Below are positions 2,347 through 51,725 of a stretch of 64,000 nucleotides of DNA, in pieces. This DNA comes from a virus. Lineage: Duplodnaviria > Heunggongvirae > Uroviricota > Caudoviricetes. A program made the position numbers and the translations under genes. How positions within the stretch are numbered: position 1 is the first letter of the stretch; each line of letters begins with the position of its first letter. The stretch is taken from IMG/VR virus record IMGVR_UViG_2667527592_000002, one strand, 5' to 3'. The notes beneath the pieces are model-generated. The model worked only from the letters and a program-made list of their open reading frames with translations. It made no database searches and was not told where the DNA came from.

Positions 2347-4264
2347 CAATCCTTTACGAATTAATATTCAGTCTACTTTTGCTGATACGATCCCCGGCTA
2401 TATGCCAAGTCGCTGGTCTTCAGAAGAATTAAGCGAAGATGACCTGATTTTTGAGGCGGCGACCTTAGAAGATATTGAGCTTGCCTATATGGGCAATGAA
2501 ATTCTGGTTGTGTCTGACGAAGCTATGTTTGAGTCCATAACTACAACCAGAATTCGGTTAGCTCAAACAATGCGAGCTTTCGTCCGTGCGCTGAATCGTG
2601 GCCTGAATGGTACGAATATTATGGCAGGGACTGATGAAGCTGGGACCGATGAAAATGGACGTAATTGTATTGGTGGTGCGATTATCGGTCGTGTACGTCG
2701 GGTAGCTAATATCCCTGTTTTGACCGCGCAGATACCGCTTACTGACGGGCAGAGTACAAGCATAATTTTCCACTCTCCAACAGCTGACGGGGCAAAAATA
2801 AAGAGTAACGACGAGCTTGTTGCATTTCAGTTTTTACTTAATAAGCGTAACGTAACTCACGTTGTCGCCCCGATTGGTGGGAGAGATGTTTCTTTAAGCC
2901 AGGTATGCCAGGCGCTATCTAATTTGATTGAGCGTAACAGCGAAAAATTTAAGAAAGCAAAAGAGCGCCAGGACAAAATGAAGGCAGATATTGAGAGTTA
3001 TCTCAATGAAGCAGATAAACTGGCAGAAGAACGGTCAATAATGATTGATCAGGTGGAAGTTGCGCAACGTGGGCTGACTGAAAAGCGTGCTGCTCTTACG
3101 GAGATGCAAAAAAAACTTGATGCCCAGAAAGCCATCAACGAGGAATTACAAGCAAAACGCGATAAATTGTTGTCTGCTAAAGGTGAAAAAACGAAAGAAC
3201 GAGCGTTTAGTGACCAGCTGCGACATGTAAAACATAATCTTGCCATTGACGGAAAAACAGTGCTGGATAATGGCGCTGAAGTTAATTATGTCACGTCCGG
3301 CAGTGATAATTTCGTTACGATAGTAGCACCTGAAGGTAAATTCAGTATTGATGCCAGTGCTGTCAAAGGAGGCAGTTTGGCAGATGCTGCAACCAAATTA
3401 CTTAAAGCCTACCGAGAGCATAACGCAGATAAATATAAAGTTGATGTGTTACCAGGCCAGCTGGAAGACTCCGAACTACCACAGACAGACCCCGAAACGA
3501 ACCCAGTATTACAACCAGAGAGCCAAGATGTAGGTAAATACCACTATGCACTTCAATCTCGCCCGGCTGGTGTTGGTGCTGTTCCGGATGGAAATAAAGC
3601 CGTGCTTGATCGTCCTGACCAGGCTGATCAGTATTACGAATATGCTCGTCACGGTATCATTACGTATGACCGTAAACTGACAGATGAAGAAGTCAGCCAG
3701 TACGAGTTGCTTTATCTTCCTGATGAAGATGAGCTGAAAGATTTTGCAGGCCAATTGGTTGCGTCCAGCATGTCGAAACATATTGATGGCTATGTGGACC
3801 TGTTTGGCAGTGACCTGAAAACATTCAAGGCGCAAGTGAAAATTCTTTTCCGCAAAGCGTTTCCAAACGTGGCGTATCCACTTAGTGATGGGGAGAACCT
3901 TTTCATTATGGACGTGAATAACGCCCTTCAAAATCATTCAAGCGAAGTAAAAACAGAGCATGTGGTTGAGCCAGAATCACAACCACAACCAGCACCAGAA
4001 CAGGAGTCGGAGCCAGAAGAAGCGGGTGAATCAGCAAGTGAAGCTGATCAGGAAGCAGATAAAGCGCTGGAGTACCTGAAATCCGTGCCGGAGCAGTTTA
4101 CATCCCGCGATCTGACGGTCATCAGTGCTGAACTTGATCATGTGCAGGAAGCAGCGAACGCTCTAATCAGTGCAGGTCGATACGACGAGAACGAAGCCAC
4201 TGTGGGTGCAGCAGTTGACTACCTGATCAATATTCTGGCTGAAATTCAGCAGGGAGGTGTTTAA
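2333..4264 (+). CDS. DarA-like large protein (positional and size analogy only)
   Basis: about 640 aa, central coiled coil, acidic C-terminal region; sits in lyd-dar-like operon; start 2333 or 2339 uncertain. Confidence 0.35.
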   Translation: MSMINNPLRINIQSTFADTIPGYMPSRWSSEELSEDDLIFEAATLEDIELAYMGNEILVVSDEAMFESITTTRIRLAQTMRAFVRALNRGLNGTNIMAGTDEAGTDENGRNCIGGAIIGRVRRVANIPVLTAQIPLTDGQSTSIIFHSPTADGAKIKSNDELVAFQFLLNKRNVTHVVAPIGGRDVSLSQVCQALSNLIERNSEKFKKAKERQDKMKADIESYLNEADKLAEERSIMIDQVEVAQRGLTEKRAALTEMQKKLDAQKAINEELQAKRDKLLSAKGEKTKERAFSDQLRHVKHNLAIDGKTVLDNGAEVNYVTSGSDNFVTIVAPEGKFSIDASAVKGGSLADAATKLLKAYREHNADKYKVDVLPGQLEDSELPQTDPETNPVLQPESQDVGKYHYALQSRPAGVGAVPDGNKAVLDRPDQADQYYEYARHGIITYDRKLTDEEVSQYELLYLPDEDELKDFAGQLVASSMSKHIDGYVDLFGSDLKTFKAQVKILFRKAFPNVAYPLSDGENLFIMDVNNALQNHSSEVKTEHVVEPESQPQPAPEQESEPEEAGESASEADQEADKALEYLKSVPEQFTSRDLTVISAELDHVQEAANALISAGRYDENEATVGAAVDYLINILAEIQQGGV

Positions 4265-4632
4265 TGACCATCTCTGTTTTAGACCGCCTGAAATTAGGTA
4301 AAGAGCTATCAGATCTAATGCAGGCGCAGAAAACTGCGCCAGTATTGCAACGCGTCACCATTGGTAAGCAGATTGTTGATGTGATGCTGAAATTGGGCCT
4401 GGGGACTGCCGTGCAACCGGCAGCGGAACCGCAACAACAGGCTGATCCTGTTGTAGATGAAGTCCCTAAGATAGTGACTGACTTCCTGGGCGGTGTGTTC
4501 ACAAAGTCCACACAAATGGAATTTATTGATGCGCTGCGTGGGATCTCAAACTATGTTGGCGAGTTCCTTACGTTGGAGCAGGCTAAAGAGCAGACCATAA
4601 GCTGGGTGAAAGCTAACGGTTATGCCGGGTAA
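4264..4632 (+). CDS. hypothetical protein (DdrA position)
   Basis: 122 aa, ATGA start/stop overlap with upstream gene. Confidence 0.3.
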   Translation: MTISVLDRLKLGKELSDLMQAQKTAPVLQRVTIGKQIVDVMLKLGLGTAVQPAAEPQQQADPVVDEVPKIVTDFLGGVFTKSTQMEFIDALRGISNYVGEFLTLEQAKEQTISWVKANGYAG

Positions 4633-4714
4633 TCAAAAGGGGCTGAAATGCCCCTTTCACTTATCTGTTCTCACATAAATCACACACTTTTTACACTCAC
4701 AGCTTTCTCTATAG

Positions 4715-6112
4715 TTGGAGTGTATTTTGAACAAATCAGTTACTTCTGCGCTTTCCGAGGCCGCAGATATTAACAGCGTCATTGCTCTGGTTTCTTCATT
4801 AGAGAGGAAAGAAACACGCCTGGGGCGAAGTAGCTACGTAGTCACCAGCAAAGGTGCAGAGGTAAAGACGGCTTTTAAGGTCGTTGATGCCAGCAGTCTG
4901 ATCATTTCGAACAACCTTGACGGTACGATTAACCCGGCCTTCCCGGAAGAACTCCAACCACGAGATCGTACCCGGCTATCCAGCAAACTCCAGGTTAACC
5001 GTATTGCCTCCAATTTACGCCCGGCACAATTAACGGATTCCGGTATGAGCAGCCACGGAGCGCCTATAGTTGGTCCGGACAACGTTGTTGAATCCGGCAA
5101 CGGAAGGAGTATGGGTATCTGGCGTGCCTATGAGCAAGGACAGGCGGATGAGTATCGCCAGTACCTGATCGACCATGCGAAAGAGTTTGGTCTGAATCCT
5201 GACGAAATTTCGCAAATGTCTATGCCCGTACTGGTGCGAGAAAGACTCACAGATGTAGACCGCGCTCAATTTGCCCGCGATTCAAACATTAGTGATCTGC
5301 AAGAGATGGCAGCAAGTGAAAAAGCGTATGCGGATGCGCAATTTCTCACTGAGAGTGTCATGGCGCTATTTAATCCTTCAGATGATGGAAATCTGCTGGC
5401 GCGGTCCAATGATGCGTTTATTCGTGCGTTTTTGCGCGAAATTGGCGATACAGCGACGGCAGGCTTGCTTACTGCCGATGGGCGTCCCACGAAACAGCTT
5501 ATCGATCGCATCCAGAATGCAATTTTTGCCAAAGCGTACAAGGATGAAAGGCTTGTTAGGCTGGTGTCGGAAGAGCCAGATCCGGAAATGCGTAATATCC
5601 TGACCGCATTAAATACGGCAGCCAGCGATTTTGCGCAAATGCAGTCGCTGTCTGGCGACGCTCACCATGACGCAGTAACAGGCTTAGTGGACGGTATAGA
5701 GCAGGTTAATGGCCTGGATACACAGGCGATAGCAGCACTCCAAGAAGCAATTAATCTTGTACGTGAAGCCAAAGACAACGGTCAGGCCGTTGAAGAAGTG
5801 ATCGCCCAAAGGGGGTTATTCGGCGACAGTACACCGGAAGCTGAGGCATTGGCGTTATTCATCGTAGCAAATAATCGCAGTGCGAAGCGTATGGGGGCAG
5901 CATTCAAAAAAATGGCGCAAAAAATCAACGACGAGCTGACTCATAAACAACAGGCATTGGGCGATATGTTCGGCGGTGGCGATGTTGATCTGCGTCGTAT
6001 TTTGTCTGCTGTATCTGATGAAATTGAGGGTGAATTTGGCGAAGGGAAAGGTCTGAACTTTGCTATGTTTGAAAATTCTACAGATCTAAATAATTGCCGT
6101 ACGGAAAACTAA
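4715..6112 (+). CDS. ParB/Srx-like N-terminal domain protein (DdrB position)
   Basis: motifs ...EELQPRDR... and ...VESGNGRSMGIWRA... resemble ParB box I/II (QPR and GxxRxxA); alternative start likely. Confidence 0.4.
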   Translation: MECILNKSVTSALSEAADINSVIALVSSLERKETRLGRSSYVVTSKGAEVKTAFKVVDASSLIISNNLDGTINPAFPEELQPRDRTRLSSKLQVNRIASNLRPAQLTDSGMSSHGAPIVGPDNVVESGNGRSMGIWRAYEQGQADEYRQYLIDHAKEFGLNPDEISQMSMPVLVRERLTDVDRAQFARDSNISDLQEMAASEKAYADAQFLTESVMALFNPSDDGNLLARSNDAFIRAFLREIGDTATAGLLTADGRPTKQLIDRIQNAIFAKAYKDERLVRLVSEEPDPEMRNILTALNTAASDFAQMQSLSGDAHHDAVTGLVDGIEQVNGLDTQAIAALQEAINLVREAKDNGQAVEEVIAQRGLFGDSTPEAEALALFIVANNRSAKRMGAAFKKMAQKINDELTHKQQALGDMFGGGDVDLRRILSAVSDEIEGEFGEGKGLNFAMFENSTDLNNCRTEN

Positions 6113-6176
6113 ACCAACCGCTGAAATCACATACTGATTATGCTGCCGCAAAACTGGAAACAATTTGCGGTGATTC

Positions 6177-7859
6177 ATGGCAACGAAAGACAAAAACAAA
6201 GGCTTTCTGTCAGCATTGAAGAAAGCCTTCAACGGTGGTGATGTTACGCCCGCCGATCCGGTCGTTTTTACGAGCGGGCATAGTGTCGTTGCTCGTTCCG
6301 GCCTGTCTGCTTTACGTCCAGGTATACTGGGGAGCAACAGCGATGGCATGACGAGTGCAGCAGATTCAATTTCTTTATCCGCTGAACTGCCCGGCGAGCG
6401 CCTGCAAAAGTACAACATCCTGGAAACGATGGCTAAAAGCCCGACTATCTCGACGGCTTTAAATATTCACATTGCACATGCGCTTGCGCCTTCAAAAAAA
6501 ACCGGACAAGCATTCATCCTTTCGCCAAAGGATGGTTCCGATGCTGAGGCAGTAAGTAGATGTGAAGAGTTAACTGCTGATTTGGGGGCGATGATTAATG
6601 ACGGACTTCCTTCATGGGCCATGATTATGGCGATCTTTGGGGTGTCTTATGTCCGCCCTTATGCTGAACAGGGCAGGGGGATAACAGGCATTGAGTCCAG
6701 TTATTACACTCTGCCACACTTCGTCCAGGAGTTTTATCGTGGTAGCCAGCTGGTAGGTTTCAGTGGTGATTACATCCTGGATACGCATAGTTTGCGCAGA
6801 GTAATAACCGAACCGTGGAATCTGGTTTCCATGAAAAATCCCTATTGGACGCCGCAGCATAAAGTTATTCCGGTCAGCTACGGCACAAAAGGGTACTCAC
6901 TGTTAAGTGAGCAGGCTGATAAGCCGTTAATGGAGACGCAGAATTACGGAACTTCATTCCTTGAATACAGCTATGAACCTTACCTGAATTTATGTGCTGC
7001 GCTCGCCGCGCTGAAATCAACGCGAAATAATGCAGCCAAAATTGACCGCCTGATTGCTCTTACGACGAACACACTGGACCCGGTTAATGCGGCGAACTAT
7101 ACGCGTGGCGTCAGCCAGGCATTGAAGCGCCATAGTGACCTGGTGGCGCAAAGGTCGATTAATGCCAACGCTATTCCGACGGTGCTTAACCACCTGATAC
7201 CTGTTATGGGAGACGGGAAGAACGGTATCACTATTGATACGCAATCCATACCCGCAGATATCAGTGGTATCGAAGACGTTATGTTTCACCTCCGGCAGCT
7301 TGCTGCAAGCCTAGGCATTGACGCAACAATGCTTGGCTGGGCTGATCAGATGAGTGGTGGACTTGGGGAAGGCGGTTGGCAGCAAACAGCTATCCAGGCC
7401 GCATTACGTGCGAACTGGATCAGACAGGCCGCGCAGCGAACTATTTATCGGCTTCATGATATTCACCTCGCTTATAAATACGGGAAGGTTTACACCGAAA
7501 AAAACCGTCCTTATGACGTGCAATTCAACTCAATGAACACTGCTATCCAGGAAGAGGAAAACCGGGAACTGGATGCACGCGCCAACTTTGTTGCTGTCAT
7601 CTCCCAAATTATGGACCAGATCCAGAACAACCCGAAACTGGCTGGTAGTGACGCGTTTATGCGTTATCTGTTCACCGAGCAGTTGCACATCGACGATGAC
7701 ACTCTCAACACCATGATCAAAGAGTTTAAGGCGAATGAATCAGAGCAAAACAACGAGCATGGTATGTACGAATCCGCGCCGTTGTCGTCCGGTGACGATC
7801 CGGAAAACTGGACGCCAGAACAGTTAATAAACTTTGCAAAATTTGTGATGAGCAATTAA
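6177..7859 (+). CDS. putative portal / virion morphogenesis protein
   Basis: 560 aa, size and neighbourhood only; no diagnostic motif. Confidence 0.3.
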   Translation: MATKDKNKGFLSALKKAFNGGDVTPADPVVFTSGHSVVARSGLSALRPGILGSNSDGMTSAADSISLSAELPGERLQKYNILETMAKSPTISTALNIHIAHALAPSKKTGQAFILSPKDGSDAEAVSRCEELTADLGAMINDGLPSWAMIMAIFGVSYVRPYAEQGRGITGIESSYYTLPHFVQEFYRGSQLVGFSGDYILDTHSLRRVITEPWNLVSMKNPYWTPQHKVIPVSYGTKGYSLLSEQADKPLMETQNYGTSFLEYSYEPYLNLCAALAALKSTRNNAAKIDRLIALTTNTLDPVNAANYTRGVSQALKRHSDLVAQRSINANAIPTVLNHLIPVMGDGKNGITIDTQSIPADISGIEDVMFHLRQLAASLGIDATMLGWADQMSGGLGEGGWQQTAIQAALRANWIRQAAQRTIYRLHDIHLAYKYGKVYTEKNRPYDVQFNSMNTAIQEEENRELDARANFVAVISQIMDQIQNNPKLAGSDAFMRYLFTEQLHIDDDTLNTMIKEFKANESEQNNEHGMYESAPLSSGDDPENWTPEQLINFAKFVMSN

Positions 7860-10447: not shown

Positions 10448-10672
10448 ATGGTTAATGCCAATCCTTGCTCACGTCCAGAATTCATCTGGCGTTTCCACTC
10501 CCTGCAAAAACACTGCGATCACTTCGCAATTGCCGCAACCGAAAAAGAAGCCCGTTCTCTGATCCCTGATCAGTATGGTGTTCTTACTGGTCGTTTCTCT
10601 ACTTCCCCACAACCAAACACTAATCCCTGGTATCGCAATATTACCAATCCCGGAATTGCGGAGGCACACTGA
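10448..10672 (+). CDS. Icd-like small protein (cell-division inhibitor family; copy 1)
   Basis: 74 aa, ...EFIWRFHSLQKH...AIAATEKEAR...; paralogue at 50569..50784; precedes Ant-like gene with ATGA overlap. Confidence 0.45.
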   Translation: MVNANPCSRPEFIWRFHSLQKHCDHFAIAATEKEARSLIPDQYGVLTGRFSTSPQPNTNPWYRNITNPGIAEAH

Positions 10673-11379
10673 TGGAAATCTGCATTCTTGAAAAGCCATC
10701 AATGACCAGCATTGAGATCGCGGAGCTGGTGGGAAGTCGCCCGGATAACGTTAAACGCACTATTGAACGCTTGAGTAAATCAGGTGTTATTCCACTTCCT
10801 CCAATGGAGGTTTCCGAAAATATCAATAACTTAGGATTTAAAGTTAAAAATTCACACTACGTCTTCGAAGGCGAGCAAGGCAAGCGTGACAGTATCATTG
10901 TCGTTGCGCAGCTTTCTCCCGAATTCACCGCCCGGCTGGTGGACCGCTGGCGCGAACTGGAAGAACAAGTACGCCAGCCGTTGACCGAAATAGAGATGAT
11001 CGCCGCAATGGCTGCAAATGCAGTTCAGCAGCAAAAGCGGCTTCATGTTGTTGAGTCAAAGGTTAGCCAGGTGGTAGAAACCGTCGAGCAAATCAAGAAG
11101 GGCAACATGCCGGAAGGTTACATTGGCTACCGCCAGCTGGCGGCGAAATGCGGCCTGACCGAAGCCAAATGCCGCAACCTTGTCAACGCTTACCGGATTC
11201 CCACCGATACGCATGAGTTTTTAACTCCAGAGGGGGTATTGTCGCGTCGTTCCATCGTCGCCTTATCTCCCTTCATGAATGCTTTTAACCGGATGATGTC
11301 GGAGGCTGAACACCGAGGAAAACGTTGGTATCACCCAAAAATGGGGCAATTCCAGGTGATCGGTTGGGGAGGTGAGTGA
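10672..11379 (+). CDS. Rha/Ant-family antirepressor (copy 1)
   Basis: N-terminal MTSIEIAELVGSRPDNVKRTIERL (phage Rha-type motif); paralogue of 50784..51725. Confidence 0.7.
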   Translation: MEICILEKPSMTSIEIAELVGSRPDNVKRTIERLSKSGVIPLPPMEVSENINNLGFKVKNSHYVFEGEQGKRDSIIVVAQLSPEFTARLVDRWRELEEQVRQPLTEIEMIAAMAANAVQQQKRLHVVESKVSQVVETVEQIKKGNMPEGYIGYRQLAAKCGLTEAKCRNLVNAYRIPTDTHEFLTPEGVLSRRSIVALSPFMNAFNRMMSEAEHRGKRWYHPKMGQFQVIGWGGE

Positions 11380-11576
11380 TGGACATCATGCAGGCGGTAA
11401 AAAAAATCAGGGAAGGACAGGCTGAAGTGTGCCGCCGTAAAGCATGGAGTGTTGGTGTATGGGCCTGGCCTGATAATTACTCTACTACCGGATGGTTTTG
11501 TATTAATGGACTCCAGATCCGGGAAGTTGATTTATCGACGGCTGATATAGTCGGTAATGATTGGATGGTGACTTGA
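11376..11576 (+). CDS. small DUF2829 (Tad2-type)-like protein
   Basis: 66 aa, ...KKIREGQAEVCRRKAW...DLSTADIVGNDWMVT; matches C-terminal extension of Ant copy 2. Confidence 0.4.
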   Translation: MMDIMQAVKKIREGQAEVCRRKAWSVGVWAWPDNYSTTGWFCINGLQIREVDLSTADIVGNDWMVT

Positions 11577-25575: not shown

Positions 25576-26151
25576 ATGTTAATGGCGAACGATAACGCAT
25601 ATGCAGAAGAAGATCTCATTTTGAGTGACTTCATAGGGAAGCGGGAACGCTGGACCCAAAAGCGAGAGGAACTTTACGCCTCATTAGTTCGCAAAGGCGT
25701 CAATATCGAAACCGCACAAAGCGGCGATATGACAGTGGTAAGCGTTGGATTGCACGGTGTAAGCGTGTCAGCAATCAATCATGAGCCATACGTTGCGTTA
25801 TCCGAGTCAATGGTAAGGTTAGTTAAGTTCCTGAAGTACACAGAAGCGAATAATGTAATCATTGGCAAAAAGAATATCCCTTTTTCCTCGGCTTTTTACT
25901 GGATGATGAAAGGGCTTGATGCCCGGCGGACATCATGGCCTAAAGGGAGCTATATATCGATGTTCCGTGGCAGCATTGGCAGCAAAGAAAAGCTCTTCGA
26001 ATTCTTGCCGGAAGAGGCATTCGATATTGTGGAAGGGTGCGATGTGATGGTGATGCCTCGCCTGGTAATGATGAATGGGGATTTACAGGCGCAGACAGAC
26101 TGGTTTGCAACTGGTGTGGATATTATCGCGACTGACTGGGAGGCTTTCTGA
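25576..26151 (+). CDS. hypothetical protein with DUF2829-like C-terminal region
   Basis: ...AFYWMMKGLDARRTSWPKGSYISM...QTDWFATGVDIIATDWEAF. Confidence 0.35.
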   Translation: MLMANDNAYAEEDLILSDFIGKRERWTQKREELYASLVRKGVNIETAQSGDMTVVSVGLHGVSVSAINHEPYVALSESMVRLVKFLKYTEANNVIIGKKNIPFSSAFYWMMKGLDARRTSWPKGSYISMFRGSIGSKEKLFEFLPEEAFDIVEGCDVMVMPRLVMMNGDLQAQTDWFATGVDIIATDWEAF

Positions 26152-31187: not shown

Positions 31188-31221
31188 ATAACTTTAAATA
31201 ATTGGCATTATTTAAAGTTAG
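31188..31221. other. lox-like recombination site (13-8-13)
   Basis: ATAACTTTAAATA-ATTGGCAT-TATTTAAAGTTAG; arms inverted 12/13; first 7 nt identical to loxP arm ATAACTT; about 150 bp upstream of cre. Confidence 0.75.
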
Positions 31222-31372
31222 GCTATAATCATGTGTAGATGAACAGTGTTGACATCACTGAAAATACGTGCCTCGAATCAAAGGCTTGTATTTTGAAAAT
31301 TAACTTATAGCTACCCTGTCATTTTTATATTTTTCGCGTAGCGTCATCTGTATATAGAGGTGTAATAGTTTC

Positions 31373-32401
31373 ATGGGTGAATTAATTATCTCTGGCAGTT
31401 CCGGTGGTTTTCTGCGCAACATTGGCAAAGAGTACCAGGAAGCCGCAGAAAACTTTATGCGGTTCATGAATGACCAGGGGGCTTATGCGCCGAATACTCT
31501 GCGCGACCTCCGGTTGGTGTTTCATTCCTGGGCGCGCTGGTGTCACGCTCGCCAGCTTGCCTGGTTTCCGATCTCACCAGAAATGGCCCGCGAGTATTTT
31601 CTTCAGCTGCATGATGCCGATCTGGCTTCGACCACCATTGATAAGCACTACGCCATGCTGAACATGCTGCTTTCGCATTGTGGCCTTCCGCCACTTTCGG
31701 ATGATAAAAGTGTTTCTCTGGCTATGCGGCGCATCCGGCGCGAAGCAGCAACTGAAAAAGGCGAACGAACAGGCCAGGCTATACCGCTGCGGTGGGACGA
31801 TCTGAAACTGCTCGACGTCCTGTTGTCCAGGTCAGAACGGCTGGTGGACCTGCGCAACCGGGCTTTTCTCTTTGTTGCATACAATACGCTGATGCGTATG
31901 TCGGAAATCTCGCGTATTCGTGTAGGAGATCTGGACCAGACAGGTGACACTGTCACGCTACATATTTCACACACGAAGACAATAACGACCGCCGCCGGGC
32001 TTGATAAGGTGCTTTCCCGTCGCACTACCGCTGTGCTGAATGACTGGCTGGATGTTTCCGGGCTTCGCGAACATCCTGACGCAGTGCTGTTCCCGCCGAT
32101 ACACCGTAGCAATAAGGCCAGGATCACGACAACGCCCCTTACTGCACCTGCAATGGAGAAAATATTCAGCGACGCCTGGGTGTTGCTGAATAAAAGAGAT
32201 GCTACGCCAAACAAAGGAAGATACCGGACGTGGACCGGGCATAGTGCACGCGTCGGGGCCGCTATTGATATGGCTGAAAAGCAGGTGTCTATGGTGGAGA
32301 TCATGCAGGAAGGAACCTGGAAGAAACCGGAAACACTTATGCGGTATCTTCGCCGTGGCGGCGTGTCTGTGGGGGCTAATAGCCGCCTGATGGATTCGTA
32401 A
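31373..32401 (+). CDS. cre: Cre-like tyrosine recombinase
   Basis: colinear with P1 Cre as recalled: ...SLAMRRIRRE..., ...AYNTLMRMSEISRIRV..., ...GHSARVGAAIDMA..., ...EIMQEGTWKKPETLMRYLR (catalytic R-H-R-W-Y positions conserved). Confidence 0.92.
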   Translation: MGELIISGSSGGFLRNIGKEYQEAAENFMRFMNDQGAYAPNTLRDLRLVFHSWARWCHARQLAWFPISPEMAREYFLQLHDADLASTTIDKHYAMLNMLLSHCGLPPLSDDKSVSLAMRRIRREAATEKGERTGQAIPLRWDDLKLLDVLLSRSERLVDLRNRAFLFVAYNTLMRMSEISRIRVGDLDQTGDTVTLHISHTKTITTAAGLDKVLSRRTTAVLNDWLDVSGLREHPDAVLFPPIHRSNKARITTTPLTAPAMEKIFSDAWVLLNKRDATPNKGRYRTWTGHSARVGAAIDMAEKQVSMVEIMQEGTWKKPETLMRYLRRGGVSVGANSRLMDS

Positions 32402-32819: not shown

Positions 32820-33292
32820 AAACTTATTACCCATCTCTGAATTGTTACCCGTCTTCCTATCCAGAATTATCCGGGAAGCTGTTAGCTCTATTAGCTAAAG
32901 CACCTACGGAATGGTTTAAGCCAGTCGTTATCAATCCACACTTCCTGGATTACGGATCTGTTCGCACTCGTAACGAACTCAAAAACCTACTGGCGCATGG
33001 ATTCATTCGACACCGTGCCGGGAAAGGCTATCAGTTAGCGATTGCGCCAGAAGAGGCCATGCGGCTATTCGCATATCGTGACAGCCAGACAAAAGCTCGG
33101 GTAATAGCTCAAATACTTCATAACGGCAGCACCTATGCCCGCCAGTTTGGCGGCGACACGTCGCAGTTCTTGCGGGCGGTGCGATCGCTGGAGGAGCAAG
33201 GAGTTATTGAAAGTTCCTGTCTTCCTGTTCCTACCGTTCCACATATCAAACGTCGGGTTTACACCTTCACGCAGAGAGCTAAAAAACAATGA
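32816..33292 (+). CDS. hypothetical protein
   Basis: 158 aa ORF, overlapping stop/start. Confidence 0.3.
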   Translation: MKTYYPSLNCYPSSYPELSGKLLALLAKAPTEWFKPVVINPHFLDYGSVRTRNELKNLLAHGFIRHRAGKGYQLAIAPEEAMRLFAYRDSQTKARVIAQILHNGSTYARQFGGDTSQFLRAVRSLEEQGVIESSCLPVPTVPHIKRRVYTFTQRAKKQ

Positions 33293-33783
33293 TTTACGTA
33301 AAAGTGAAACGCCTACATCCGGCAGCAAAACTTCCAGCTTATGCCACCTCCGGATCGGCGGCGATGGATTTTGAGGCTGTTGAAATAACACCATGCGTCG
33401 ATAGCAATGGTGAAATTTCCTCAAGCTGGTGGGTGCATACCGGACTGGCTATGGAGATCCCGCCCGGCTGGTGTCTGAAACTCTATCCGCGATCCGGATT
33501 GGGCTGCAAAAAACATACTCGCCTGGCTAACTGCGTAGGAATTATCGACTCCGATTATCGCGGTGAAATCATGGCAAAACTGATTACTGATCCCGGCGGG
33601 GAAGGCGTTTGTCTCAAGCCTGGAATGGCTGTCATGCAAGGCATTTTTGAGCGTGTTGAACAAGTCTCACTAGTCGAGGTTGAGGAACTCAACGAAACGG
33701 AACGTGGTGCTGGTGGCTTTGGTAGCACATCGGAAGGCCACTTTGAAATTAAGCGTTCACCGCTTCAGTACGAAAAGTTATAA
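33289..33783 (+). CDS. dut: dUTPase
   Basis: motifs ...GIIDSDYRGE... and C-terminal ...RGAGGFGSTS... Confidence 0.85.
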   Translation: MIYVKVKRLHPAAKLPAYATSGSAAMDFEAVEITPCVDSNGEISSSWWVHTGLAMEIPPGWCLKLYPRSGLGCKKHTRLANCVGIIDSDYRGEIMAKLITDPGGEGVCLKPGMAVMQGIFERVEQVSLVEVEELNETERGAGGFGSTSEGHFEIKRSPLQYEKL

Positions 33784-33797
33784 GCAGAGAAAAGACT

Positions 33798-34475
33798 ATG
33801 AATAACATGACAACGAAAGAGCTTTTGACGGCACTTCCAAAATACAAAAGCCATAAAACAGTTCGTGCCTCAAAAATCAAAGATATCGAAATTATCGCCC
33901 TAATGGATGTGGTCCTTCTTTGCAACATCGAAGTCGTTGAGCCAGAAGGGGTAAAAGTCCATGTTGATAAAATGTTTTTGCAAAAACACCGACCAGAAAT
34001 TGGCGGATATCTGGTCGCTTATGAGGACGGATCTCTGTCCTATTCACCAGAAAAAACATTTGAAGAAGGCTTTAGTCGGACTAACGACTTCTTCGAAAAT
34101 GGGGCATTGCTCAGCATTGAAGGTCACAATGGGGTGACATTCATTACAGCCAGGGACGTAACTATTTCTGCTGGCGGTATCGCTACTCTACAAGAAGAAA
34201 TCGACCTTGAAGCAGCCGACTTTTCTGACGCGCTGATGTGGCTGAAGGATGGCAAGAAAGTTGCTCGACGCGGGTGGAACGGCGAAAACCAATTCTGCTG
34301 GCTGGTTCCTGAAGGACAGTACCCGGCACGAATGGAAGCCATTAAGGGATATTTCCCCGGCGACCTCGTTCCGTATGGTGCTTATTTCGCCTTAAAAAAT
34401 GCACAAGGTGTAGTTGTTCCGTGGGTTCCTTCTGTAGGCGACTTACTGGCATGTGACTGGTTTGTAGTGGAGTAA
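33798..34475 (+). CDS. two-domain protein with C-terminal DUF2829 (Tad2-type)-like domain
   Basis: ...DALMWLKDGKKVARRGWNGENQFCWLVPEG...VVPWVPSVGDLLACDWFVVE. Confidence 0.5.
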   Translation: MNNMTTKELLTALPKYKSHKTVRASKIKDIEIIALMDVVLLCNIEVVEPEGVKVHVDKMFLQKHRPEIGGYLVAYEDGSLSYSPEKTFEEGFSRTNDFFENGALLSIEGHNGVTFITARDVTISAGGIATLQEEIDLEAADFSDALMWLKDGKKVARRGWNGENQFCWLVPEGQYPARMEAIKGYFPGDLVPYGAYFALKNAQGVVVPWVPSVGDLLACDWFVVE

Positions 34476-34481
34476 TTTGAC

Positions 34482-35288
34482 ATGGAAAGCACCAAAACAA
34501 TTCAATACCGCTTGCGTAATGGCCTGCTGGTGGCTGTTAACGCCGACATGTCACTGCCGTTTGACACGATTGAACGCACTATCATGACGTATCTCGGCTT
34601 TAATGAAGAACTGAATGAAGAGCATGGCGTAGCTATATGGAGTGATGCAGACAGCGGCGTTCGTCGTTACATCACCGCCAGGGGCAAAGACTACTCTCTG
34701 GAAGAACTGTTTGCCCTTGCGCAGTCTTTCGAATGTGTAGCATTAGACCTGTTTAATGATCCTGCTATAGCGCAACGACTTATACGCGAGCTTGGGCTAT
34801 CCGTTACACCAATTATCTTTAAAAATGGCAGCCTGACTGGCACATGGCGCGTAGAACGCATCTCAAACTACCTTCCATATAACCGACAGTTAAATGGAGT
34901 AATCTCCGGCGTTAATCAGCCCGTAGCGTGTGAAAATGTAAATCTGGTTGTCGCTGTTTTGGCAACCGCATGTCGTGTTATCGGTTTGGCTAAACAGGCA
35001 TTTATTCATTTCCCAAATGGTGCAGAAGGTAGCGCAGAGATTATCGCGTGTGATTTCGAATTTACCTGGATGCTACGCGAATATCTGGACCAAACAGTGT
35101 TCCGCGCCGAAGAACTGGATATGTATATCACGTCAACGATTCCTGATGATGTGCGTGCTGAAGCAATCGCCACAGCAAGGGCCAAATGCCGTGCGGCGAT
35201 TGCAGAACAGGCCAAAGAAGAACAGTCCGATGAAGTCGCGGCAGATGTGGAGGCAGAGGTAGCGGAGGATGCTGATGCTGACGCCTAA
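34482..35288 (+). CDS. hypothetical protein with acidic C-terminal tail
   Basis: 268 aa; C-terminus ...EEQSDEVAADVEAEVAEDADADA. Confidence 0.35.
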   Translation: MESTKTIQYRLRNGLLVAVNADMSLPFDTIERTIMTYLGFNEELNEEHGVAIWSDADSGVRRYITARGKDYSLEELFALAQSFECVALDLFNDPAIAQRLIRELGLSVTPIIFKNGSLTGTWRVERISNYLPYNRQLNGVISGVNQPVACENVNLVVAVLATACRVIGLAKQAFIHFPNGAEGSAEIIACDFEFTWMLREYLDQTVFRAEELDMYITSTIPDDVRAEAIATARAKCRAAIAEQAKEEQSDEVAADVEAEVAEDADADA

Positions 35289-36375
35289 AAACATCACCGA
35301 ATTACCAGAGTGGAGAGAGCTGGTAAGCAAATATAGCCATGACTGGGCATTAGCAGCAGAAGAGTTGATGGGTGTTAAGTTAACCCACCAGCAAAAGCTA
35401 ATTGTTGAGGCGATTCAACAAAAAGGTTCAGCAGTCAGCGTCACCACTCCTGAAGGGATAGGCCAAAAGACGGTTATCGCTATAATTAGTATTCTTTATA
35501 CAATCCTGATGCCTGAGTCTAAAACGGTTATTGTTTCCCCAAAGTTCTATAATTGTCGCAGGCAAGTTATCCAATACATAAGTACGTATTGGGATAGAGT
35601 CAGTAACAGAATCCCATTGCTGGGAGAATATTTTAAAGTCGATGGAAACGGCATCAATCATCGTTACCGGGAATATTGGGGCTGCGAAATTAAGCCATAT
35701 CACCGAAATTATGAGGAAGGTTTCGGTGGATATTATGCTGAACATCTTTTAATCATTGTTACGGAGGCGGCTCTTGCTGGCGATCGGCTATTCAGCATGT
35801 TAAGAGCATCGTTAGTAAGTGACGATTCACGTATACTTTTAATGTCCGCTCCTTCAGAGGAGGAGCATGGACACTTTTACGATTCCCATCATGGTCGTGC
35901 TAAATCAGAAGAAAATCCATGTGGTATTTATACAGCCATCAAGCTGAACGCAGAAGATACCCCCATTATTTCTCAAGGTTATCTTGATAACATTGCAGAA
36001 ATATATGGTGGTAAAAACAGCGATTACTACCGTCGTATGGTTCTTGGTGAGTTTCCTGGTATTAGGGGGGCTGTTCTTGAATCAGATATGCCGAAGACAA
36101 TGCGCTTTTCGATGCCTGATGGTAGTGAATGGATAATGCCATTACGAGTGATAGCCCGGCATCATGCACAGCACCACGCCAAAAAACATGGCGTTACAAC
36201 ATTGGAGTGGTTGAAATCGCACACCATTCCACTCTTCACTGCAGATCACAATGCTATCGTTGAGTGGGCAAAAACAATTCCGTGGGAGAATGTTGCTGAA
36301 TACGCCCACATGCTAAAACCGCCGAAAGACAGGCAAGAAATTAGCTGGCTGACAGCAGAAAAAATCATTGAGTGA
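35269..36375 (+). CDS. terminase-large-subunit-like ATPase-domain paralogue, degenerate Walker motifs
   Basis: shares ...HFYDSHHG.AK...NP.GI.TAI.LN.E..P...QG.L...AEIYGG... with PacB-like 28405..29913; Walker A TPEGIGQKT, Walker B LLIIVTEAA (DE replaced by TE). Confidence 0.5.
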   Translation: MLMLTPKNITELPEWRELVSKYSHDWALAAEELMGVKLTHQQKLIVEAIQQKGSAVSVTTPEGIGQKTVIAIISILYTILMPESKTVIVSPKFYNCRRQVIQYISTYWDRVSNRIPLLGEYFKVDGNGINHRYREYWGCEIKPYHRNYEEGFGGYYAEHLLIIVTEAALAGDRLFSMLRASLVSDDSRILLMSAPSEEEHGHFYDSHHGRAKSEENPCGIYTAIKLNAEDTPIISQGYLDNIAEIYGGKNSDYYRRMVLGEFPGIRGAVLESDMPKTMRFSMPDGSEWIMPLRVIARHHAQHHAKKHGVTTLEWLKSHTIPLFTADHNAIVEWAKTIPWENVAEYAHMLKPPKDRQEISWLTAEKIIE

Positions 36376-36381
36376 TAGTAG

Positions 36382-36412
36382 GAAGCCCGCCTGGTTGAGC
36401 GGGCTTCTTTTC
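36382..36412. terminator. bidirectional hairpin terminator
   Basis: gaagcccgc-ctggttga-gcgggcttc + ttttc between convergent genes. Confidence 0.55.
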
Positions 36413-36791
36413 AAATATTGGAACCATATAGTTCACGTAGTTTTTCCGCTACTGAAGATACGGGGATTTCACCAGTTGCAGCCCCCACCGCAAGTTCCAC
36501 CAGCACGGGAGAATCATATACCTGTATACCGTTACGGCGTAGAAATAGCAGCGCACTGTTTAGCGCGGTACGCTTATTGGCATCATTGAATATATGCCCT
36601 CTCGCAGTAGCCACCAGGTAGGTTGCGGAGACTTCGAAAAGGTCGGTGATCTCTTCGTAGGCAACTCTGGCCTGAACTCTCCCGATAATGGCCTCTGCCC
36701 TACCCGGATCTGACATTCCCGGCAGGCCGCCGTAGCGGCTTATATTCGCATCATGAAGCGCAATAAGTTCTTCCGGTGATATATGCCTCAT
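36411..36791 (-). CDS. doc: Doc toxin (Fic-fold kinase)
   Basis: [40 protein letters not shown]... near-identical to P1 Doc as recalled. Confidence 0.95.
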
Positions 36792-37018
36792 TATCGGTTA
36801 ACCAGTTCCTTGTTGGTGGAGTCCAGGGTGTCAAACAGGGATGCAAATTCAGCATCCAGCGCCGCCTTTTTGTAGGCTTCGAAAGTAGCCTTGCTGACAA
36901 TTACTGCTGGTTCACGGCCTCTGCGGGTGATTTCAACCTCTTCCCCGGCTTCAACATTGTTGAGCAATTCAGAAAGGTTGCCGCGCGCGGTACGGAAGTT
37001 AATGGACTGCATAAACAC
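36791..37018 (-). CDS. phd: Phd antitoxin
   Basis: ...[49 protein letters not shown]...; likely true start at ATG 37012; stop overlaps doc start. Confidence 0.95.
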
Positions 37019-50568: not shown

Positions 50569-50784
50569 ATGGCTACTATCCCTACCCCAACTCATTCTGA
50601 ATTTATCTGGCGTTTCTATTCCTGCCAAAAACACCTGTATATCTGCGTAATGGCTGCTACCGAAGCAGAAGCTCGTTCATACCTTCCTGAAGAACCCTGC
50701 ATTTTTGCCGCACGCTTCACTCTTGATGCGATGGAGATCCTCAATTACTGGAATCTGCCGATGAACTGCGTGGAGGTGCACTGA
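50569..50784 (+). CDS. Icd-like small protein (copy 2)
   Basis: ...EFIWRFYSCQKH...VMAATEAEAR...; paralogue of 10448..10672. Confidence 0.45.
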   Translation: MATIPTPTHSEFIWRFYSCQKHLYICVMAATEAEARSYLPEEPCIFAARFTLDAMEILNYWNLPMNCVEVH

Positions 50785-51725
50785 TGAATCTGCCCATCTC
50801 TCGCAAAGCGACAATGACCAGTATTGAGATCGCGAAACTGGTGGGAAGTCGTCACTCTGATGTTAAACGCAGCATCGAAAGACTTGTTGCTAAAGGTGTT
50901 ATCCAACATACGCCATTGGCTACAGTTGAGAATAATCAATCACTTAGCCCTAATAAATACACAAAAGCCTATGTCTTCGAAGGCGAACAAGGCAAACGAG
51001 ACAGTATCATTGTCGTCGCACAGCTCTCTCCGGAATTCACCGCCCGGCTGGTGGACCGCTGGCGCGAACTGGAGAATGCCAGGGGACCGTTAAAATCAAA
51101 AGCCGAAATCCTGGCTGAAATGGCGCAAATGCATCTTGAGCATGAACGCCGGATCAACGCCGTAAATGCCCAGGTAGCCGAGGTATCAGCACAAGTATCG
51201 ATGGTTGCTGAAACACTCGAGCAAATAAAGAAAGGCAATATTCCGGAAGGCTACATTGGCTACCGCCAGCTGGCGGCGAAATGCGGCCTGACTGAAGCCA
51301 AATGCCGAAACCTGGTCAACGCTTACCGGATTCCCACCGATACGCATGAGTTTTTAACTCCAGATGGTTTGCTTGCGCGACGCTCCATTGTGGCCCTGGC
51401 CCCCTTCCGGAAAGCCTTTAAGCAGGTGATGTCGGAGGCAGAACCACGCAATAAACGCTGGTATCATCCAAAGATGGGGATGTTTCAGGCAATCCACCAT
51501 CCTGTGCCTGAAAGCCCAAAGGATAATCTGTCACTACATACCGCCAGAGAGAAGATCAGGACTGGATACGCAACAGTGTGTCGTCGTTCTTCCTGGCCTG
51601 AAGGTGTATGGGTATGGCCCGAAGGTGGATCACGAAAGCACTGGCGCACCATCCGGGACGGAAAAATCCATGCTATTGATTTAGCTCCAAAGGATGTTAT
51701 TGCTATGGACTGGATTGTTAGTTAA
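50784..51725 (+). CDS. Rha/Ant-family antirepressor (copy 2) with DUF2829-like C-terminal extension
   Basis: MTSIEIAKLVGSRHSDVKRSIERL; C-terminal ...KIRTGYATVCRRSSWPEGVWVWP...IHAIDLAPKDVIAMDWIVS aligns with standalone 11376..11576. Confidence 0.7.
   Translation: MNLPISRKATMTSIEIAKLVGSRHSDVKRSIERLVAKGVIQHTPLATVENNQSLSPNKYTKAYVFEGEQGKRDSIIVVAQLSPEFTARLVDRWRELENARGPLKSKAEILAEMAQMHLEHERRINAVNAQVAEVSAQVSMVAETLEQIKKGNIPEGYIGYRQLAAKCGLTEAKCRNLVNAYRIPTDTHEFLTPDGLLARRSIVALAPFRKAFKQVMSEAEPRNKRWYHPKMGMFQAIHHPVPESPKDNLSLHTAREKIRTGYATVCRRSSWPEGVWVWPEGGSRKHWRTIRDGKIHAIDLAPKDVIAMDWIVS

Follow-up and report, generated by a model that had tools for sequence, protein, structure and literature searches.

The open reading frame (ORF) at 33798-34475 of the 64,000-nucleotide stretch of virus DNA analysed here (IMG/VR record IMGVR_UViG_2667527592_000002; the whole stretch is hereafter the window) encodes a protein in which an N-terminal oligonucleotide/oligosaccharide-binding (OB) fold is joined through a linker to a C-terminal Tad2 domain. 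The window is related to Escherichia phage D6, a phage-plasmid of the P1 family, and a 6.5-kb stretch around the gene is 96% identical to D6; the region holds a Dre/Cre-type recombinase, phd/doc and further genes of P1 type. We consider it likely that the product is a modular counter-defence protein of D6/P1-type phage-plasmids, combining a Tad2 signal sponge with an accessory OB module. The Tad2 part is a member of a well-known and already annotated family; it is the association of the OB domain with sponges that adds to this.

The Tad2 domain and its predicted ligand pocket

Residues 141-224 match the Pfam family PF11195 (Tad2-like, formerly DUF2829) with an E-value of 1.6e-22 and 80.3 bits, against a curated cut-off of 25 bits, and the alignment covers positions 2-73 of the 73-position profile. 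Among solved structures the best match is the Tad2 of a Myroides odoratus prophage (MoTad2, also ModTad2; 9EIB and 8V3E), with phmmer E-values of 6e-20 and 6e-21, well outside the range of chance; the two domains are identical at 40 of 89 positions (45%) with a single one-residue gap. HgmTad2/AcrIIA7 (8kbi, E 4e-10; 9kzr), SPO1 Tad2 and SptTad2 are also matched. An AlphaFold model from the single sequence had a predicted local distance difference test (pLDDT) score of 35 and was discarded; it was replaced by a model based on an alignment of 63 sequences (A1), with a mean pLDDT of 85.4 and values above 90 over residues 141-225. This model shows an N-terminal helix, an antiparallel β-sheet and short helices in the β2-β3 and β4-β5 loops, as expected for the Tad2 fold, and Foldseek aligns it to 9EIB with an E-value of 1.4e-9.

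These results bear out the initial annotation of the window, made from its letters alone, which had proposed a strong DUF2829 (Tad2-type) domain at the C-terminus, an unrelated domain at the N-terminus and a dUTPase as the neighbour, and had suggested the Pfam scan and structure comparison that gave the DUF2829 match and the Tad2 fold. The C-terminal sequence that it quoted is reproduced exactly in the translation of the ATG-initiated ORF. Judged by profile match and predicted fold, the assignment of residues 136-225 to the Tad2 family is correct. It is not new, since the protein is already labelled “DUF2829 domain-containing protein” in RefSeq and UniRef.

The nucleotide-signal pocket of the family has been described in two proteins. 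In SPO1 Tad2 the pocket for 1''-3' glycocyclic ADP-ribose (gcADPR) is made by W25, N26, W73 and D79, with T78, I63 and T65 at the adenine, and its waters are held by D67, H71 and S76 (Yirmiya et al.). The HgmTad2 equivalents are W21/N22/G23, W87, L88, S90, T92 and D93 (Li et al.). HMMER alignments place W160/N161/G162, W209, V210, S212, G214 and D215 of the window protein at these positions, and the core Trp/Asn and Trp...Ser...Asp elements are intact. The window protein thus shares with SPO1 Tad2 (Gp34.65; 8SME/F/G) and HgmTad2 (8KBI-M) both the PF11195 domain and the conserved gcADPR-pocket residues: SPO1 W25/N26/W73/S76/D79, which correspond to HgmTad2 W21/N22/W87/S90/D93, are all kept. It differs from them in overall identity, which is only ~33-41%.

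MoTad2 is more closely similar. Fold, length, the length of the β2-β3 insertion and the pocket motifs GWNG and W.PS..D are alike in the two domains; MoTad2 differs in being a stand-alone protein of 88 residues, where the window protein has a 135-residue N-terminal extension, and in having Ser rather than Gly at position 214. The β2-β3 insertion builds a second, cyclic-nucleotide pocket in both HgmTad2 (Li et al.) and MoTad2 (Hadary et al.). In MoTad2 this second pocket binds the cyclic mononucleotides cUMP and cCMP; the protein inhibits type II Thoeris by binding histidine-ADP-ribose (His-ADPR), and inhibits Pycsar too (Hadary et al.). MoTad2-like specificity is our best guess for the Tad2 domain, because MoTad2 is the closest characterised relative and the insertions are of equal length.

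With 45% identity to tetrameric MoTad2, the domain should form a homotetramer with pockets at the protomer interfaces. In the mechanism that we propose, these inter-protomer pockets (W160/N161 and W209/S212/D215) would sequester ADP-ribose-derived signals from the Toll/interleukin-1 receptor (TIR) enzymes of bacterial Thoeris systems. With the signal sequestered, the Thoeris effector would never be activated and the phage-plasmid would evade Thoeris-type abortive infection. Cyclic mononucleotides may be sequestered as well.

The N-terminal OB domain and its sponge fusions

The N-terminal ~135 residues form a domain distinct from Tad2, and a Pfam scan of residues 1-140 found no domain. The profile of alignment A1 matches the decoration protein Dec of phage L (Protein Data Bank entry 6E3C) with an E-value of 1.3e-7. 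An independent profile, made from 142 representatives of the OB family without the window protein, matches Dec at E 9.7e-4; a profile of the N-termini of the D6 clade does so at E 8.7e-6, and its alignment continues into the Dec stalk. In this region ...VTFITARDVTISA... of the window protein stands opposite INLTGSVTISA in close alleles and ITLTGAVTGSA in Dec. The A1-based monomer model gives a Dec-like OB fold with pLDDT >90, and the window protein has in common with Dec the OB topology (β0, β1-3, αOB, β4-5, α2) and the motif KPE.GGYL...AFE..Y; the β segment that follows resembles part of the Dec stalk. The linker, residues ~99-135, aligns to Dec chain positions ~99-121 and is modelled in the monomer at a pLDDT of ~50. 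In other OB-Tad2 proteins it varies or is missing. The Dec stalk itself is disordered in the monomer and has been modelled as a trimeric β-helix on capsids. A search for further OB-domain copies across the window found none.

The family to which the OB domain belongs is large and consists mostly of stand-alone phage proteins of ~90 residues. Searched exhaustively with HMMER, residues 1-140 gave 2546 cluster representatives (50% identity, E<=1e-3), nearly all of which match residues ~12-97. A search with the family profile gave at least 5561 clusters at 90% identity; it listed only the top-scoring canonical stand-alone members and so informs prevalence and not fusion frequency. The 120 best of these clusters range in length from 81 to 141 residues, all without a Pfam domain. 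The consensus, LP.Y.CHK.V.A.KI...KH.P..GGY.V.YEDGY.SYSP..FE.GY, has a dozen invariant positions.

Fusion partners were counted by a Pfam scan of the 142 representatives. The only recurrent Pfam partners of the OB domain are four sponge families: Tad2-like PF11195 (seven), crAss001_48/Sequestin PF21825 (seven), Phage_gp49_66/Acb4 PF13876 (four) and the Acb2/Tad1 hairpin PF24729 (three). PF21825 and PF13876 are the Sequestin and Acb4 sponge families of Tal et al. (2025, bioRxiv 10.1101/2025.07.12.664507), who discovered Sequestin through its fusion to Tad2 and Acb4 and found Acb4-Tad2 fusions to be active in experiments; Tad2 thus tolerates fusion. The OB domain occurs on either side of Tad2, and OB+Sequestin and OB+Acb4 proteins exist without Tad2, one of them being OB+Acb4+Sequestin. 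Among 120 proteins homologous to the window protein, OB+Tad2 accounts for 84, and six more are OB+Tad2 with a C-terminal extension, which is Sequestin where checked (P0061, P0062 and P0073).

Two published Tad2 architectures, Acb4-Tad2 of Pasteurella phage Pm86 and Tad2-Sequestin, likewise join Tad2 through a flexible linker to another small phage module. They differ from the window protein in the partner, which here is a Dec-like OB domain that is outside Pfam and at most a candidate for ligand binding. The OB domain was invisible to the Pfam-based fusion survey of Tal et al. because it is not in Pfam. Among the papers searched for a 6E3C-like or OB-fold sponge, or for a characterised OB-Tad2 protein, only an exclusion note in Hadary et al. 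came up.

Gene contexts of OB-Tad2 and OB genes are early or accessory, not structural. In Klebsiella phage SopranoGao the OB-Tad2 gene lies after cI/cro-like divergent regulators, and stand-alone OB genes are found in runs of small ORFs, with a stand-alone Tad2 gene as well in one such array. On the metagenomic phage contig ERZ2485795 (locus L005, 1-54 and 5001-5303) stand-alone OB and Tad2 genes are ~5 kb apart in a same-strand small-ORF array, as would suit a set of accessory or anti-defence genes. We also observed triple-module proteins, OB+Tad2+Sequestin and OB+Acb4+Sequestin, among P0062, P0099, P0110, P0114 and P0267, all outside the window. Some 60 more OB-family proteins bear N- or C-terminal extensions of 45-200 residues that have no Pfam match and are mostly unlike each other; they are candidate sources of further partner modules.

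Locus, alleles and related domains in the window

The positions of the gene, its domains and its neighbours are collected in Table 1. PHROG 872 covers the protein over its full length (E 5.3e-60), and the opposite strand across 33798-34475 holds no long rival ORF, the longest being 72 codons.

Table 1. Features of the OB-Tad2 locus and of the second Tad2-like domain; positions refer to the window.
Feature	Position	Strand	Remarks
OB-Tad2 ORF	33798..34475	+	ATG at 33798, stop 34473-34475, 225 residues; from ORF list and sequence
N-terminal OB-fold domain	33831..34088	+	residues 12-97; homologous to the OB domain of phage L Dec; no Pfam model
Linker	34089..34202	+	residues 98-135; β-rich, resembles part of the Dec trimeric stalk / tail-fibre repeat (...VTFITARDVTISAGG...)
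Tad2 (DUF2829, PF11195) sponge domain, predicted	34203..34472	+	residues 136-225
W160-N161-G162, β1-β2 loop of the predicted ADP-ribose-signal pocket	34275..34283	+	= SPO1 Tad2 W25/N26, HgmTad2 W21/N22/G23; HMMER alignments, codons checked
β2-β3 insertion	34305..34382	+	residues 170-195; three discrete cassettes among near-identical alleles
W209-V-P-S212-V-G214-D215, second half of the predicted pocket	34422..34442	+	= SPO1 W73, S76, T78, D79; alignments
Sigma-70-like promoter match	31202..31229	+	TTGGCA-16-TATAAT, 11/12; consensus scan only
Dre/Cre-type recombinase (dre)	31373-32401	+	start of tightly packed gene string
dUTPase gene (dut)	33289..33783	+	directly upstream; Pfam PF00692 E 2.3e-14; PHROG 135 E 1.3e-62
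isaA-like (268 residues) and 368-residue protein genes	34482..36375	+	PHROG 2326 and 5902; travel with the OB-Tad2 gene
Terminator-like hairpin	36389..36404	+	just past last gene of string; consensus scan only
Second, more divergent Tad2-like domain	25882..26145	+	residues 103-190 of ORF 25576-26151; Pfam 39.1 bits, E 1.1e-9

The gene is part of a string on the + strand, dre-orf-orf-dut-(OB-Tad2)-isaA-like-368-residue ORF, whose members are tightly packed or overlapping and which ends at 36375. The OB-Tad2 ATG lies 15 nucleotides past the dUTPase stop and the next gene begins 7 nucleotides past OB-Tad2. Upstream of the string the consensus scan found only one strong sigma-70-like match on the + strand. 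The product of the 368-residue ORF has weak similarity to terminase large subunits (PHROG 5902, E 1.9e-10). OB-Tad2, the isaA-like gene and the 368-residue ORF move as a three-gene unit (33798-36375 in the window; 4001-6554 in locus L009) that follows dut in D6-like elements and ssb in P1-like plasmids such as pE2865-1. The region downstream of ssb in P1-like plasmids also gathers insertion sequence (IS) elements. Directly past the terminator-like site of the window is an intact phd/doc toxin-antitoxin pair (36411-37018, - strand), ~95% identical to that of P1. A PADLOC scan of the OB-Tad2 gene and its neighbours gave no match, as is expected for an anti-defence gene.

The identical protein occurs on 814 contigs in public collections under the name “DUF2829 domain-containing protein”. 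The gene is present in 213 of 5426 complete E. coli genomes (~4%), and 213 of its 220 places are on plasmids of ~95-100 kb. Phages SJ46 and vB_EcoM-Ro157c2YLVW carry full-length copies of the gene; its best matches do not include P1 or P7. Comparison of 50 full-length alleles with the window protein in blocks of 15 residues gave identities of 85-98% for the Tad2 flanks, well above those of the N-terminal region (0.32-0.72, against 0.85-0.98 for the Tad2 core). The β2-β3 insertion of these alleles comes as three discrete cassettes, PEGQYPARMEAIKGYFPGDLV, LAGSVNLHDIQV and PDKQGASRLTPIKHAANGELEINFDSPLA, in E. coli and Salmonella phage-plasmid alleles that are elsewhere near-identical. The lengths that occur are 12, 21 and 29 residues. 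The pattern suggests that cassettes are exchanged within the region of Tad2 that builds the second ligand pocket. Rearranged alleles also occur: that of phage RCS47 (locus L010, 3001-3466) is truncated by IS26 at residue 152, P0056 (241 residues) is an in-frame dUTPase-Tad2 deletion-fusion, and in P0023 a tail-fibre repeat precedes the protein.

The initial annotation had counted four Tad2-like domains in the window, at 11376, 25576, 33798 and 50784, and had called their density unusual. Those at 33798 and 25576 score above threshold; the other two do not, which brings the number down to two verified domains. Two per phage-plasmid is notable, not extraordinary. The domain in ORF 25576-26151 (191 residues) was also found by our own Tad2 hidden Markov model (HMM; E 5.2e-8), and its pocket motifs are altered, with SWPKG for GWNG and WFATGVD for WVPSVGD; the ~100 residues N-terminal to it have no assigned domain. 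This ORF lies just upstream of a 130-residue ORF, of lpa (late promoter activator, PF25716, 26652-27044) and of pacA/pacB-like genes.

The remaining two are paralogous modules of ~60 residues, 11376-11576 (+) and 51540-51725 (+), that resemble DUF2829 over its full length at sub-threshold scores. The former is an ORF of its own that overlaps the stop of a Rha-like protein (10672-11379), and the latter forms the C-terminal end of another Rha-like protein (ORF 50784-51725), so that the architecture occurs once split and once fused. Both were rejected as verified Tad2 members. ORF 11376-11576 reached 15.1 bits in Pfam (E 0.035; cut-off 25) and E 0.79 with our HMM; the C-terminus of ORF 50784-51725 had no Pfam match at E<=1 and an E-value of 5.9 with our HMM. 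When the two modules and a few homologs were compared with Tad2 by hhalign, the probability was 10% (P 0.003). A homolog search for the modules found three sequences, none with a Pfam domain. At best they would be very remote, putative relatives of Tad2.

The role of the OB module

We favour the OB domain being a functionally linked accessory of the sponge, because the OB family is repeatedly fused to four unrelated sponge families. It would serve as a second ligand- or partner-binding domain or as an oligomerisation module, and not in capsid decoration; that it contributes some linked function is probable.

A number of observations weigh against the reading of the protein as a sponge with an accessory module. 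On the Tad2 side, the Thr that contacts adenine (SPO1 T78, HgmTad2 T92) is G214 here and Ser in MoTad2. The cyclic-dinucleotide (cGG) site of HgmTad2 is absent: R31 is replaced by V170, F70 by Y193, and S47 and N85, like R31 without a counterpart, fall in gaps since the insertion is shorter in the window protein. The ligand assignment goes by overall similarity to MoTad2. About a quarter of the sponge homologs that have been tested inhibited none of seven systems. Tad2 homologs with PF21825 or a 6E3C-like domain were removed from the functional screen of Hadary et al. Co-transcription of the gene with the dre-dut string is plausible, the promoter and terminator being consensus matches. On the OB side, the D6 allele (orf114; locus L001, 2594-3034) has an in-frame deletion of the OB core, residues ~21-99, and retains the first 20 residues, the stalk-like linker and Tad2. 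Of 33 positions conserved in the family, the window OB domain has 25, and an invariant Tyr is lost (DGY to DGS); some phage-plasmid alleles have just 11-13, stand-alone members 30-33 and Dec 13. Because of the D6 deletion and these eroded positions, the OB module of the D6/P1-type lineage may be dispensable, re-purposed or decaying.

Taken further, the same observations would make the OB domain a passenger, inert or in decay and left over from the fusion of adjacent genes, with only Tad2 of consequence. The dUTPase-Tad2 allele P0056 and the low identity of the N-terminal region relative to the Tad2 core agree with this. We nevertheless regard it as unlikely, if far from negligible: OB+Tad2 is by far the commonest form among the homologs, the exact sequence is widespread on the public contigs, the OB fold is predicted with high confidence and most key OB motif residues are kept. 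Slightly less probable still is the opposite possibility, that the OB domain is itself a sponge which oligomerises and sequesters a different immune signal, making the window protein a tandem double sponge like Acb4-Tad2 and Tad2-Sequestin. The logic of guilt by fusion has already yielded Sequestin. The OB family is short, phage-borne, mostly stand-alone and independently fused to four sponge families, and triple OB-Tad2-Sequestin proteins exist. Its strongly conserved residues (H, K, KH.P, GGY, Y.DGY.S.SP, FE.GY) are polar or aromatic, as in a nucleotide pocket, and differ from the capsid-contact residues of Dec. The lost Tyr of the window allele, the degenerate motif of related alleles and the absence of the OB domain from D6 all speak against a second sponge.

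Dec homology raises the question of whether the N-terminal part is a genuine capsid decoration domain, its stalk trimer displaying DUF2829 outward from the virion for adhesion or another extracellular role. The homology in sequence and fold does reach into the stalk region, the linker is modelled with low confidence in the monomer, in keeping with the disorder of the Dec stalk in its own monomer, and a member of the OB family bears the annotation capsid decoration protein in one phage. We consider this very unlikely. Of the Dec capsid contacts K30, Y31, Y49, Y71 and E73, which are not conserved here, K30/Y31 correspond to E31/I32 (in a variable region where the alignment is uncertain), and the Dec loop SQYGE with Y71/E73 stands where the family has an invariant YEDGY, YEDGS in the window protein. 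With 13 of 33 conserved positions, against 30-33 in stand-alone members, Dec looks like a divergent offshoot, and the constraint on the family does not appear to be Dec-type capsid binding. Dec is a virion protein; the gene in the window lies among recombinase and nucleotide-metabolism genes and bears a cytoplasmic sponge domain. Its neighbours are dre, dut and an isaA-like gene, or ssb and an isaA-like gene in P1-like plasmids, not head genes, and OB-family members are found in phages whose capsids are unrelated, as well as in early arrays of small ORFs. The fusion partners of the family are intracellular sponges, a trimeric stalk fits poorly beside a tetrameric Tad2, and a sponge on the capsid surface could not reach the cytoplasm.

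The structural and sequence relationship to AcrIIA7/HgmTad2 would also allow the DUF2829 domain to be an anti-CRISPR, a reading to which we give almost no credence. E. coli is not known to carry type II-A CRISPR-Cas as a rule. In the work of Li et al., inhibition of Cas9 by HgmTad2 and its homologs was not reproducible, and sponge activity was demonstrated instead.

With the accessory-module reading preferred, the finding places a probable Thoeris/Pycsar-type sponge on P1/D6-type phage-plasmids, which are present in ~4% of complete E. coli genomes, clinical lineages among them, and which also bear resistance cargo. In the near-invariant Tad2 core with its three insertion cassettes, ligand specificity is varied as in a natural experiment. 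Published screens passed over the association of OB domains with sponges, which is a lead open to testing and offers a route to a new anti-defence module, as was the case with Sequestin. It is also conceivable, though on present evidence improbable, that the OB domain defines a large unrecognised phage family acting on immune signalling, either as a further sponge family or as a universal accessory of sponges. If so, the window protein would be a two-specificity sponge present in ~4% of sequenced E. coli, and members of the OB family could serve to identify new bacterial alarm molecules, in the way that Tad1, Tad2 and MoTad2 have done.

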